In this document: piece after piece, positions 6,592 to 10,865 of the stretch
Layout of the letters: each line of letters starts with the position of its first letter
Numbering within the stretch: position 1 is the first letter of the stretch
IMG/VR virus record: IMGVR_UViG_3300042090_002000
Span: 13,725-77,724 of that record
Length of the DNA: 64,000 bases
DNA from: a virus
Reading direction: 5' to 3' (one strand)
The notes under the pieces: model-generated
What the model was told of the DNA's origin: nothing
Seen by the model: only the letters and a program-made list of their open reading frames with translations
Database searches by the model: none
Position numbers and translations under genes: made by a program

Positions 6592-8070
6592 ATGGCGACA
6601 TACTATATTTCGTACTCTGCAGGTTCCGATAGCAACAACGGATTGTCGAAAACAACGCCGTGGCAGCGTCACCCATACATGCGCAAATTTGCAGGCAAGT
6701 ACACGCACGCTGCAGGTGACGTTTTTATTTTCAAGATGGGTGATAGCTGGCCGAACGCTTGCTTCGATATGGTGATCGGCGCAGGCGGAACGAGCAGCAC
6801 TCCTGATCAGTACACCTTCGATCCGACGTGGGGCACAAATCCCGGGACAGTTGGTAACACCGGGCAGACAGTCGGGGCTTACCAGTTCACCGCAGGCGGA
6901 GCCGCCATATCCGGCGGCGACGGATACAACAAATTTATTTTCAACGATGATGTGAACTACGTGACGTTCAATGGAATCGAGTTCACGGGCATGGTGTGGA
7001 CCGGGTCGCCCGCGTTCGGGAATCCGGCGATGATCGACTTGCAGCAGAGCACCAACGTGATTATCTCGAATTGCTATTTTCACGGGTGGGCGCACTCCAA
7101 CACAACATCGGACGCGCTGCTCTGTGTGCTGGGAAACGGGAACTCGCCGTACAACGCAGGCTGTCGCGTGACGGGCTGCGTATTCGATGGATTGAATTCC
7201 GGCGGCCCGGGCATCTCTGACAGCGGGTCGGCCACGTTTGCGATTCCTCTGTCCGACAACAACATCATTCGGAATATGTCCAACGGACTTCTGTTGAATG
7301 CCAACGGAGTGGCCCATGACAATCTGATCGGGCCGATCAACCAGTCTTTCGATTCCACGAATCATGAGAATTGCATTGAGCCCATCGACATGATCCCCGG
7401 GGGAACGTCGACGGTTTATATTTATAACAACGTGATTCATGACGCAACAGCCGCGATGATTTTGTGCCAAGGTGCGGCTCCGAACAATGGCGCGGAGATC
7501 GACTACGTTTGGAATAACGTGTTTTACGTGGGGACGGATGCCAATCCACCGATCCCACTGCAGTTCGATTCTATATCCACGAACATGGCGAACTGTCAAG
7601 TCCACGCATGGAACAACACCATCGTGGGCGGCGCAGGTGCGTGCATGCGTACTGTCAGTCGCGGCAATGGAAATTTCGGAGTGCTGGATATTCAGAATAA
7701 CCACTGCATCTCCGACACGGCAGCGCCCGGGGGCATCATCGAATTGGGCGTGACAGGTACCACCCTGAAAAATAACAACAACGTCCTGCAGACGCAGAAG
7801 GCAGCGGCTGCGCAGGGATACAGCAACACAGAGAAATTTTTCTACAGTCCGACTGCGGGCGGCGCAACGATTGGTGCGGGCGCGAACCTAGAAAGTCTGG
7901 CGACCGGCGCACTGGCTTCGTTGGCGCAGGACACAGGATACGCCGGAGAGCGCACTACTGTTGCCCGACCGACAAGTGGGGCGTGGGATGCTGGCGCATA
8001 TCAATTCGCGGCGGGTACAGGTACCGCACCAACACCGCCGACAAATCTTGAAATTGAGAACGTCGCTTAA
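6592..8070 (+). CDS. Right-handed parallel beta-helix protein (tailspike/depolymerase-like)
   Basis: Starts TYYIS...GSDSNNGLSKTTPW, has repeated I.NN.I/YNN beta-helix rungs, and ends with WDAGAYQF. Confidence 0.7.
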   Translation: MATYYISYSAGSDSNNGLSKTTPWQRHPYMRKFAGKYTHAAGDVFIFKMGDSWPNACFDMVIGAGGTSSTPDQYTFDPTWGTNPGTVGNTGQTVGAYQFTAGGAAISGGDGYNKFIFNDDVNYVTFNGIEFTGMVWTGSPAFGNPAMIDLQQSTNVIISNCYFHGWAHSNTTSDALLCVLGNGNSPYNAGCRVTGCVFDGLNSGGPGISDSGSATFAIPLSDNNIIRNMSNGLLLNANGVAHDNLIGPINQSFDSTNHENCIEPIDMIPGGTSTVYIYNNVIHDATAAMILCQGAAPNNGAEIDYVWNNVFYVGTDANPPIPLQFDSISTNMANCQVHAWNNTIVGGAGACMRTVSRGNGNFGVLDIQNNHCISDTAAPGGIIELGVTGTTLKNNNNVLQTQKAAAAQGYSNTEKFFYSPTAGGATIGAGANLESLATGALASLAQDTGYAGERTTVARPTSGAWDAGAYQFAAGTGTAPTPPTNLEIENVA

Positions 8071-8076
8071 AAAGGC

Positions 8077-8105
8077 TTGACACCTTTTCGTGGATGTAGT
8101 AGGAT
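8077..8105 (+). promoter_or_regulatory. Sigma70-type promoter for the structured RNA/tmRNA locus
   Basis: TTGACA(8077)-17 nt-TAGGAT(8100). The predicted start near 8112 coincides with the first hairpin. Confidence 0.65.
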
Positions 8106-8111
8106 CGCGGT

Positions 8112-8332
8112 GTCGGACCTACTCACGGGGATGCCACCGCCATCAGGACGTGCATAACGACCGGATGGCAAGCGTACCGTTAACTGCGACTTGAAGGTGT
8201 CTCCCTGAGTAGGCCTGACTGGTGGAGGTGAAATGGTTCCACTGGGATGTTCGTCGGTCACTGAACCAAGCCATGCATGCATGAAACTCATCCGGTCTGC
8301 TGCCGAACATCCCAGTGGGGCCGTTTCGCTCC
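8112..8332 (+). ncRNA. Structured RNA domain (two long hairpins with complementary loops), 5' of the tmRNA acceptor piece
   Basis: 8112-8138 pairs with 8196-8219 and 8224-8253 pairs with 8304-8332. Loop GACCGGATG (8159-8167) is the exact complement of loop CATCCGGTC (8289-8297). Confidence 0.7.
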
Positions 8333-8342
8333 GAAAGTTACG

Positions 8343-8682
8343 CTCGTAGAAAGGTCATGACTGCCTAAGTGGAAGGGAGTTCAACTCTCCCCCGATCCAC
8401 CCGATGAGTGATGCGCCATGGGTTTCGTGAAACCCGCCATCTGTTTGTGATCACTCATTCGGTGGGTCGGACGGGTTTCGACACATAGGTCGAGAAGTGA
8501 CGCTAGTTCGAGTCGAAGTGAACGCGACGTAATCGCGTATCAAACGATAGACGCCAAAACTAAAATGGCTAAGGTCCTTGCGTTCCCAGCAATGCGAACT
8601 GTGGCTCCGGCCCGACAGTTTGCGCTGGCTGCGTAAGAGCCGCCCGGGAGTGGCCGAAAGCTGCTCCCGGGATTTTAATTTT
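8343..8682 (+). ncRNA. ssrA: Circularly permuted (two-piece) tmRNA
   Basis: The T-arm GGGAG-TTCAACT-CTCCC and CCGATCC-A (8375-8399) precede the 5' end GGGTCGG-ACGGGTTTCGAC (8464). The acceptor stem has G3:U70 and A73. P2 helix pairings are present. The resume motif ATAGAC-GCC opens the tag AKTKMAKVLAFPAMRTVAPARQFALAA* (8553-8636). Confidence 0.92.
8643..8682 (+). terminator. Intrinsic terminator after the tmRNA coding piece
   Basis: CCCGGGAG...CTCCCGGG hairpin followed by ATTTTAATTTT. Confidence 0.7.
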
Positions 8683-9183
8683 ATGACAAAAAGTCTTGCA
8701 AAACAGAAAGAGTACCGCGACCGGCGAACTGCTGCCGGAATTTGCGTTGCTTGTGGTGGGTTATTATCAAGGAAGACCGTGATTTGTGCATCGTGTCAAG
8801 AAACACGCAATACGTATCGTCGTACTCGTCGAGCAGATCGCAAGAAAAAAGGGTTGTGTCCAGAATGTGGTGAGGTTGCTCCTAATGGGCGCACATACTG
8901 TTTGGATTGTGTTTTTCTGCATAGACTGGATTTATTAAAATTATCGCCTGAAGAGACGGAGCGAGCCGTTAAGGCATGGAATTCATTTCAGGGCGCATGC
9001 GAGTGTTGTGGGACTACTCAACCGCCAAAGCGGGGCTGGTTTATGGATCACGATCACAAAGCGAAAAAATTTCGAGGGATTATATGTCAATTTTGTAATA
9101 CAGGATTAGGGTATTTTTTCGACGATGTGACCAAACTTCACGCCGCAATCGAATATATAAAAAGGAGTCAAAATCGTGCCTAG
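8683..9183 (+). CDS. Endonuclease VII-like HNH nuclease
   Basis: CECCG...MDHDHKAKKFRGIICQFCNTGLG, with N-terminal CxxC repeats. Confidence 0.8.
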   Translation: MTKSLAKQKEYRDRRTAAGICVACGGLLSRKTVICASCQETRNTYRRTRRADRKKKGLCPECGEVAPNGRTYCLDCVFLHRLDLLKLSPEETERAVKAWNSFQGACECCGTTQPPKRGWFMDHDHKAKKFRGIICQFCNTGLGYFFDDVTKLHAAIEYIKRSQNRA

Positions 9184-9845: not shown

Positions 9846-10865
9846 TCATTCCATTGATTTGATGATGTCCGAAAGTTCTTGCCGACCTGCAGAAGTCAGA
9901 GAATAACCCCACCGTTTCTCGAATTGCTTCAGACGCTCAACCGGCGACTCGTGATTCGGAATGAACCATGAGCCCACGCGCGTCAGAAGGTCTTTCACTT
10001 TTTCGGGCACGAGAACCCACTTGACCCCGGCGACCGTGGCACGCTTGATTTCTTCCTGTGTGGTTACGGGCACCGCGTCATATCCATTACGCGCCACATA
10101 ATAGTTGTAGTGGCGATTCACGAAGTCCGATCCGGCATAGGTATGCGACGAGACGTACTCGACATCCGGGGCTCCAGCCTCCATCAGTTCGGAACAACGC
10201 TCATCATGGCCGCGCAGAATCCAAAGCTGCGAAGTCTCCCATGCGAGATCGAAGCCGTCGACCATGCCGCGATCCCTGTCGAGTTTGATTCGTCCCGGGC
10301 GAAACGCATAGCCGCATTTGAATCCCTTGACCGTTGCCACGTAGAGGCCGCCCACGTAGATGCGCCCGCGCTGCGCCGGTTCATCCAGAATCATATTAGG
10401 AGCGTCGGGTGTGAAGATGTTCGGGGTGATTGTTCTCCACGTCTCTTCGGAGATGTCAGAAATGTAGAAGTGAACACCTGTGATTGATTTGGCTGCCATG
10501 ACGTGGACGCACAGCACAGTTGCGTCGAAGGTGATATCGTGTTCCAGTTTGGCTATCCAGATGGTGTCGCCGGTGTGGATGACGACTTTATATTTCATGC
10601 GGGTGAGGGCAAGTAACGCGATCTTGTACCCCTCGCCGAATTTGCCGCGCTTGGATAGATCATCTCGTTTTGACGATGTACCCAGCACGAGCGACGACGG
10701 CGTGAGTTGGCCGGTTGCGGACGAAATCTCGATGCGTTTTGCGGCGGGGTTGTATTGGATCGAGGCCCCGCCTTCGTCGAGGGCGTTCTGGTAAATTTCG
10801 CGCACGGCTTCCCAGAGGCCCCAGTGAGCGCAGTACGTCTCCGCGATAGGAAGCGTATACTTCAC
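9846..10865 (-). CDS. GHKL-type ATPase domain protein
   Basis: AVREIYQNALD, LGTSSK, GKFGEGYKIA. Confidence 0.75.
   Translation of the reverse strand: MKYTLPIAETYCAHWGLWEAVREIYQNALDEGGASIQYNPAAKRIEISSATGQLTPSSLVLGTSSKRDDLSKRGKFGEGYKIALLALTRMKYKVVIHTGDTIWIAKLEHDITFDATVLCVHVMAAKSITGVHFYISDISEETWRTITPNIFTPDAPNMILDEPAQRGRIYVGGLYVATVKGFKCGYAFRPGRIKLDRDRGMVDGFDLAWETSQLWILRGHDERCSELMEAGAPDVEYVSSHTYAGSDFVNRHYNYYVARNGYDAVPVTTQEEIKRATVAGVKWVLVPEKVKDLLTRVGSWFIPNHESPVERLKQFEKRWGYSLTSAGRQELSDIIKSME

Follow-up and report, generated by a model that had tools for sequence, protein, structure and literature searches.

A stable double hairpin as the probable 5' leader of a permuted tmRNA gene in a wetland phage

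The DNA analyzed here, referred to as the window, is a 64,000-nucleotide stretch of uniform composition that forms part of the 77.7-kb virus record of a wetland phage. The phage hallmark genes found in it include the large terminase, an SU10-type portal, a DNA polymerase, GroEL and endonuclease VII. A circularly permuted tmRNA lies at 8342-8636; it scores 57.1 bits with the Rfam model RF04321 (gathering score 47) and is also predicted by ARAGORN, with a 27-aa tag ending in FALAA. Two-piece tmRNAs of phages are already known (PMC9004378). The endonuclease VII gene (PF02945, phrog_2633) stands right behind the tmRNA terminator at 8683-9183, and its protein carries an N-terminal extension of about 90 aa that is rich in CxxC pairs. 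The subject of this work is the element at 8112-8332, just ahead of the tmRNA, which an initial annotation had read as two long hairpins joined by kissing loops. The features of the locus are as follows.

8077-8105, + strand: sigma-70-type promoter TTGACA-17-TAGGAT, from a consensus scan
8112-8219, + strand: D1, the first hairpin domain; -52.7 kcal/mol, z -6.7 (minus strand -47.4 kcal/mol)
8159-8167, + strand: GACCGGAUG, the D1 partner of a 9-nt complement; 3' strand of an inner 12-bp hairpin in the minimum free energy (MFE) fold
8219-8228, + strand: linker CUGGUGGAGG, the only leader stretch invariant in all three phages compared
8224-8332, + strand: D2, the second hairpin domain; -59.2 kcal/mol, z -6.5 (minus strand -47.3 kcal/mol)
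8272-8283, + strand: self-complementary 12-mer CAUGCAUGCAUG, or (CAUG)3, in the D2 apical loop; CATGCATGCATG as DNA
8289-8297, + strand: CAUCCGGUC, the matching half of the 9-nt complement, in the apical part of D2
8333-8344, + strand: single-stranded junction GAAAGUUACGCU, holding the conserved UUACGC; putative processing site between leader and acceptor piece
8342-8401, + strand: tmRNA acceptor part with the P2 3' strand, T arm and acceptor 3' strand CCGAUCC-ACC (RF04321, ARAGORN)
8402-8462, + strand: intervening segment, a hairpin prolonging the acceptor stem (arms 8392-8412 and 8450-8470), of the kind removed in two-piece tmRNAs
8463-8682, + strand: tmRNA coding piece with the acceptor 5' strand GGGUCGG and the PK1 region (RF04321, ARAGORN)
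8553-8636, + strand: tag frame of 27 aa ending in FALAA, within the coding piece
8643-8671, + strand: intrinsic terminator with U tract after the tag stop (scan); transcript end at about 8682, where an RNA contig of run X5 also ends

Given the position of the promoter, the first base of D1 is likely to be the +1 of the transcript, at about 8112, which agrees with the initial annotation's placing of the element at a transcription start. The same annotation had seen no terminator before helix P2, and the consensus scan of 8112-8342 likewise contains no terminator-like site; the nearest ones are at 8419-8436, inside the intervening segment of the tmRNA, and at 8643-8671. Neither a second promoter within D2 nor termination after D2 was seen in the scan. 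The leader and the permuted tmRNA thus share one transcription unit, as judged from the consensus scan and from RNA contigs that cover both parts, and the positions of promoter and terminator, together with synteny, place the transcript between about 8112 and about 8682.

The element as a whole folds very stably on the + strand, at -113.1 kcal/mol with a z-score of -7.24 (RNAfold), and none of 200 shuffled sequences was equally stable. D1 is a branched hairpin of 108 nt, in which outer stems formed by GUCGG.ACCUACUCAC and GUGAGUAGG.CCUGAC enclose two small inner hairpins. D2, of 109 nt, consists of a stem of about 29 bp with several G:U pairs and one bulge, topped by an apical part of about 50 nt. 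Together they make a set of nested hairpins in which almost every base of the window element is used, and the two long hairpins of the initial annotation are in the sequence exactly as it had described them, with the folding energies listed above. Its argument that G:U pairs favor an RNA of the + strand also holds up: the minus strand of 8112-8332 reaches only -96.6 kcal/mol overall, and as the advantage of the + strand comes from G:U pairs, an RNA read off this strand is the better reading. By these folding calculations, D1 and D2 are two independent, very stable domains of the + strand.

A known RNA family does not explain this element. The Rfam search that had been proposed as a check was run with the Rfam 15 covariance models on 8112-8332 and gave no match reaching a gathering score; in E-value mode the sole match was a spurious 5.8S on the minus strand (E = 1.1). 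A protein gene was considered and rejected, as the open reading frames at 8067-8291 (minus strand), 8143-8310 (minus strand) and 8233-8349 (+ strand) have no Pfam or PHROG match at E <= 1; the start codon of the last is absent from the two related phages, G001 and G006, which are described below. This frame, of 38 codons and not conserved, opens with an AUG that stands four bases behind a Shine-Dalgarno-like GGAGG in the stretch GGAGGUGAAAUGGUU (8224-8246).

Part of the window is present in 13 public sequencing runs, three of which are wetland metatranscriptomes, and their contigs were placed on 7900-8900; runs with small word shares were left out, and the conclusions apply to the parts of 7900-8900 that RNA contigs cover. 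In run X4, a contig of 211 nt lies wholly on 8126-8336 at a depth of 10.5 without overhangs, and a further contig lies on 8432-8582 at a depth of 2.9. In run X5, which belongs to another study, a contig of 338 nt lies wholly on 8345-8682, again without overhangs. Its 3' end coincides with the U tract of the terminator, which suggests that contig ends at this locus track RNA ends. The positions between the two contigs, 8337-8344, are bridged by a DNA contig and by no RNA contig. This break is a weak hint of a leader that is severed in the conserved junction 8333-8344 and then persists, and it has to be read with the limits that these are assembled contigs from different samples, whose ends, strand and level are not provable, and that carry-over of DNA into the RNA libraries is possible, though the contig ends fit RNA boundaries. 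The X4 contig of D1 and D2 spans the linker, so the two domains are not fully separated from each other.

Relatives of the phage were found through a conserved neighboring gene, phrog_6077 (9846-10865, minus strand), whose closest protein relatives are P0001 (98%), P0002 (71%) and P0003 (60%). A permuted tmRNA is present in only two of the roughly 30 related virus records (29-30, including G007-G034), namely G001 and G006, which score 71 and 81 bits with RF04321. Several of the relatives without a tmRNA are rated complete, and the tmRNA is an accessory trait of this phage group. The three tmRNAs of the window, G001 and G006 align well, with compensatory changes in the T arm and the acceptor stem and with a shared tag motif, which makes them functional homologues.

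Several features of these three genes deserve mention in their own right. The tags of the clade are unusually long, at 27 aa in the window (8553-8636), 27 aa in G001 (L011, 1392-1476) and about 24 aa in G006 (L086, about 1733-1807); they have the internal motif (A/L)AKV(L/I)(A/E)F in common and end in LAA or MAA. The tmRNA of G006 appears to resume on GUC, not on GCN. An intrinsic terminator follows directly after the tag stop in all three phages (8637-8682 in the window), and none of them has a PK2 after the tag, unlike the usual description of two-piece tmRNAs (PMC3985003). The acceptor 3' end reads UCCACCA in G001 and G006 and is encoded as UCCACCC in the window (8396-8403), where the terminal A of CCA is absent from the gene; the tmRNA of the window would therefore need CCA repair or addition.

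The stretch upstream of these tmRNAs has the same layout in all three phages: a promoter, a hairpin at +1, the linker (C/A)UGGUGGAGG, a second hairpin, UUACGCNCGU and helix P2. The promoters, TTGACA-17-TATCCT in G001 and TTGACA-17-TATATT in G006, keep the same distance from the first hairpin, the second hairpin sits directly behind GGAGG, and UUACGCNCGU in the A/U-rich junction is invariant. The hairpins themselves are unrelated in sequence among the three leaders (n = 3 distinct leaders readable), and they differ widely in size:

Window: first hairpin 108 nt, second hairpin 109 nt
G001: first hairpin 18 nt, second hairpin 25 nt, with loops of 4-5 nt
G006: first hairpin about 111 nt, second about 115 nt, a multi-helix domain

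As nested hairpins the G006 leader folds weakly (z -1.8 overall and -1.1 for D2), and it may instead form a pseudoknot, which would fit a pseudoknot-like role better. In its second domain (L086, 1416-1494), CUUUCGG pairing with CCGAAGA (1416-1422 with 1449-1456) crosses UGGGGUC pairing with GGGACCCC (1423-1429 with 1487-1494), as drawn by eye on one sequence. Helices crossing in this way would amount to an H-type pseudoknot whose loops contain hairpins.

A closer relative gives a view of the change on a shorter scale. A soil contig of 5,221 nt from run X6 is 86-95% identical to the window in its flanks, and in it 184 letters that cannot be aligned take the place of 232 nt (8083-8314), with 8315-8357 left intact. 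Conversely, nothing comparable to the hairpins was found at the syntenic locus of six relatives that lack the tmRNA. The presence of the same skeleton in the three tmRNA-bearing phages, and the lack of hairpins where the tmRNA is missing, argue that the element belongs to the tmRNA gene. On this comparison, it would be the skeleton of the leader alone that is constrained, with the hairpins free to change in size and sequence.

Other routes added no further leader. A blastn search of 8070-8700 against 50,697 deposited phage records gave no match, the endonuclease VII gene led to no relatives, and an upstream gene of 492 aa led to eight loci with no tmRNA in those tested. Scans of viral, metagenome and genome contigs with DNA patterns of the clade's tmRNA motifs returned only G001 (also L093 and L094) and G006; one match in a genome contig was discarded as a chance match inside a Chamaesiphon coding region. 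None of 36 other viral permuted tmRNAs could be aligned to the leader of the window. When genome contigs were scanned for a tmRNA 5' end resembling the 5' strand of D2, none of the 120 matches was followed by the tmRNA motif UCGAC.

A further claim of the initial annotation was that the loops of the two hairpins kiss through a perfect complement of 9 bp. The complement is exact; one of its partners, 8159-8167, lies in a predicted stem and not in a loop, so that the term "kissing loops" overstates the fold. When the two domains are dinucleotide-shuffled, 71 of 2000 sequence sets contain a complement of this length; when the inner parts alone are shuffled, a choice made after the result had been seen, 13 of 2000 do. 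As a conserved loop-loop helix the claim does not survive: the loops of G001 are 4-5 nt long, and the best complement in G006 is 7 nt, a length equaled in 984 of 2000 shuffles and hence not above chance. The marginal shuffling result, the position in a stem and the absence from G001 and G006 together put loop-loop pairing outside the conserved design. The 9-nt complement of the window is thus real but marginal, and the loop-loop pairing predicted from it is unproven. Of the TGCAT elements noted at the same time, the copy in D2 proves to be part of the 12-nt palindrome CATGCATGCATG (8272-8283), which occurs once in the window, is contained in none of 100 shuffles and is not conserved; judging from its sequence, this (CATG)3 palindrome could enable dimers. 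Also in the D2 loop, ACUCAUCCGGU (8285-8295), overlapping the 9-nt complement, resembles ACUCAUUCGGU (8452-8462) at 10 of 11 positions. The latter lies at the 3' end of the intervening segment and borders on the acceptor 5' strand; the likeness is not significant by shuffling.

The GGUGGA of the linker between the two hairpins is complementary to UCCACC at the acceptor 3' end (8396-8401), and in a search of the whole transcript for partners, the acceptor 3' end UCCACC(A) was the sole Watson-Crick target common to the three phages, with 6, 7 and 8 bp. Two other possible partners of the linker, UUACGC and the 3' tail of the coding piece, were considered as well, and neither pairing is conserved. 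The nascent state, in which the true 5' acceptor strand is still to be made, was modeled by folding each transcript truncated at the CCA position. In this state, the helix between linker and 3' end is part of the MFE fold of the window (p ~0.75) and of G001 (p ~0.6), and for G006 the fold that contains it is 1.3 kcal/mol less stable than the MFE, its ensemble probability being 0.002. In the fold of the complete RNA, it gives way to the genuine acceptor stem and the stem of the intervening segment. No covariation is seen in this pairing, because UCCACCA is held invariant by its function. The modeled folds suggest a role of the linker as a transient clamp on the 3' end of the tmRNA in the nascent RNA. 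A more far-reaching idea, which we hold to be distinctly unlikely, is that UGGUGGA is an "anti-CCA" sequence directed at the universal tmRNA 3' end UCCACCA. It would serve in cis as a co-transcriptional clamp by which the acceptor half of the split tmRNA folds ahead of its partner strand, and the released leader, as a stable double-hairpin RNA, could mask the uncharged 3' ends of phage or host tmRNA in trans; if true, ribosome rescue would be regulated by an RNA that the phage encodes.

Taken together, the common skeleton, the divergent hairpins and the replacement between strains point to a hypervariable 5' leader of the pre-tmRNA, located at the place of PK2-4. We consider it somewhat probable that the element forms such a leader (a "5' protruding region") on the precursor RNA of a permuted two-piece phage tmRNA, and that it is cleaved off and persists. 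The process can be pictured as follows. A single transcript running from about 8112 to about 8682 would carry D1, D2, the acceptor part, the intervening segment and the coding piece. D1 would act as a 5'-terminal stabilizing hairpin. During synthesis the linker would pair with UCCACC(A) and hold the unfinished acceptor part in a compact form; once transcription has advanced by about 65 nt, the genuine 5' acceptor strand would take the linker's place. Cleavage in the conserved A/U-rich junction 8333-8344 would then release the leader, whose nearly complete double-strandedness would let it survive as a stable RNA of about 225 nt. In this model, neither a conserved loop-loop contact nor a substitute role for PK2-4 in the mature RNA is needed for the observations.

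There are other ways to read the element, and they bear on different parts of the evidence. The initial annotation had offered a replacement of the tmRNA pseudoknots 2-4, in which the double hairpin would stay attached to the tmRNA as a functional stand-in and form an arc around the 30S head as in one-piece tmRNA. PK2-4 of tmRNA tolerate replacement by other structures, the element occupies exactly the topological place of PK2-4, the terminator right behind the tag stop leaves the coding piece with no PK2 of its own, and crossing helices can be drawn in D2 of G006. We nonetheless find this reading unlikely. The place stands, but a role in the mature RNA is made doubtful by the RNA contigs, which stop at 8336 and start at 8345, and by G001, in which hairpins of merely 18 and 25 nt show that the bulk is not required; the near-perfect hairpins of the window allow no pseudoknot, and the region has been replaced in a nearly identical strain. 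The other proposal of the initial annotation, an independent non-coding RNA, survives weakly, in the form of a cleaved and persistent leader. As an agent acting in trans, the released D1-D2 would either oligomerize through the 9-nt complement or (CAUG)3, or direct its linker at the 3' ends of host tmRNA or tRNA-Ala. The D1-D2 contig is the deepest one in X4 (10.5 vs 2.5-2.9, although depth is not a good measure), a 9-nt complement is uncommon in shuffled sequences (71 of 2000), the palindrome in the apical loop is unique, and the invariant linker complements UCCACCA. Against this, the element lacks its own promoter and terminator, the loops of G001 are unable to kiss, the complement of G006 is at chance level, and one of the two 9-mers sits in a predicted stem. 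Hypervariability speaks against any sequence-specific target in trans, with the exception of the linker, and half of the linker is itself engaged in the basal pairs of D2. All in all, a trans-acting RNA seems to us quite improbable.

Two more readings concern the origin of the element and its level of action. The leader could be a decayed relic of a duplicated 5' half of the tmRNA, left when the gene became permuted via tandem duplication, with the linker and the 5' strand of D2 descending from a junction of the form UGGU/GGGGNUG AAAUGGUUUCGAC. This is compatible with a 5' leader of the precursor. The stretch 8224-8238 fits the Rfam consensus for the 5' end of permuted tmRNAs at 14 of 15 positions and is the only match with at most one mismatch in the 64 kb; it is preceded by UGGU, as in real pre-tmRNA junctions, and is identical to L043 at 16 of 20 positions. 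A weight matrix built from 23 real junctions, however, leaves the site outside the top ten of the window, so that the relic is only a lead. The local alignment of the leader with its own tmRNA is not significant (p ~0.65), G001 and G006 have only GGAGGYG in common, and a neutral remnant would not hold the linker invariant. We regard it as very improbable. The junction-like stretch at 8224-8246 has an A at position 3. A derivation from the gene's own intervening segment was also tried and rejected, the best local alignment between leader and tmRNA being an 11-mer at the same p of ~0.65. Finally, the long inverted repeats might be thought to act as DNA, as a protein site, an origin or a recombination site. 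This would be extremely improbable for an element whose + strand folds 5-12 kcal/mol better than the minus strand by virtue of G:U pairs, which begins at the +1 of a promoter, which coincides with contigs from RNA libraries and which is not repeated elsewhere in the genome.

Of these readings, the cleaved 5' leader of the pre-tmRNA is the one we retain. What is new here is a leader of a phage clade that combines a fixed 10-nt linker and a fixed junction with hairpins that vary in size from about 20 to about 110 nt and change from one strain to the next. Should the leader indeed be cleaved and persistent, the tmRNA gene would give rise to a second stable RNA; and if the linker does clamp the CCA end, it would offer a testable answer to the question of the folding order of split tmRNAs. 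There is also a practical caution for annotation, as the transcription unit of such genes can start 230 nt upstream of the Rfam match.

The design of the leader has counterparts in several known systems. Stem-loops at +1, such as the 5' hairpin of ompA, hinder 5'-end-dependent decay, and a hairpin at +1 is likewise present in all three phages. D1 differs from the ompA type in being 108 nt long and branched, and a stabilizing role would be by analogy. Kissing-loop complexes have exposed loop bases and a complementarity that is kept in relatives, neither of which was found here. The pseudoknots PK2-PK4 of one-piece tmRNA (RF00023) take up roughly 200 nt, and the element is of similar overall size. 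In topological terms it likewise sits between the tag region, hairpin included, and the P2 3' strand; unlike these pseudoknots, it is made of plain hairpins in the window, without H-type pseudoknots, has no match to RF00023 and shrinks to about 50 nt in G001.

To our knowledge, catalogues of permuted tmRNAs have mostly relied on the tRNA-like core, descriptions of the protruding ends being scarce in general and absent for phages. The closest known system is the 5' protruding region of the permuted tmRNAs of Alpha- and Betaproteobacteria and Cyanobacteria (RF01849, RF01850 and RF01851; core RF04321). As in these RNAs, the element stands between the promoter and the 3' strand of P2, on the same transcript as the tmRNA. 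The RF04321 model covers the tRNA-like core alone, with the clade-specific 5' and 3' protruding regions deliberately omitted (PMC11915505), and our element is likewise clade-specific and outside this core model, next to the tRNA-like domain of a bona fide permuted tmRNA. The clade models for the alpha, beta and cyanobacterial types gave no match to the extension; beta_tmRNA alone responded, at 29.2 bits (gathering score 84) over model positions 76-168, in the tRNA domain. In a phage example of the beta type, an extension of about 59 nt before P2 is unpaired in the covariance model, in which pseudoknot stems are not modeled (PMC11915505), whereas the extension here is about 230 nt long and folds into two self-contained hairpins. 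Unlike the known extensions, it is also hypervariable between close strains, and RNA contigs hint at its cleavage. The whole is best described as a known type of RNA gene in an unusual form, and not as an RNA of a new kind.
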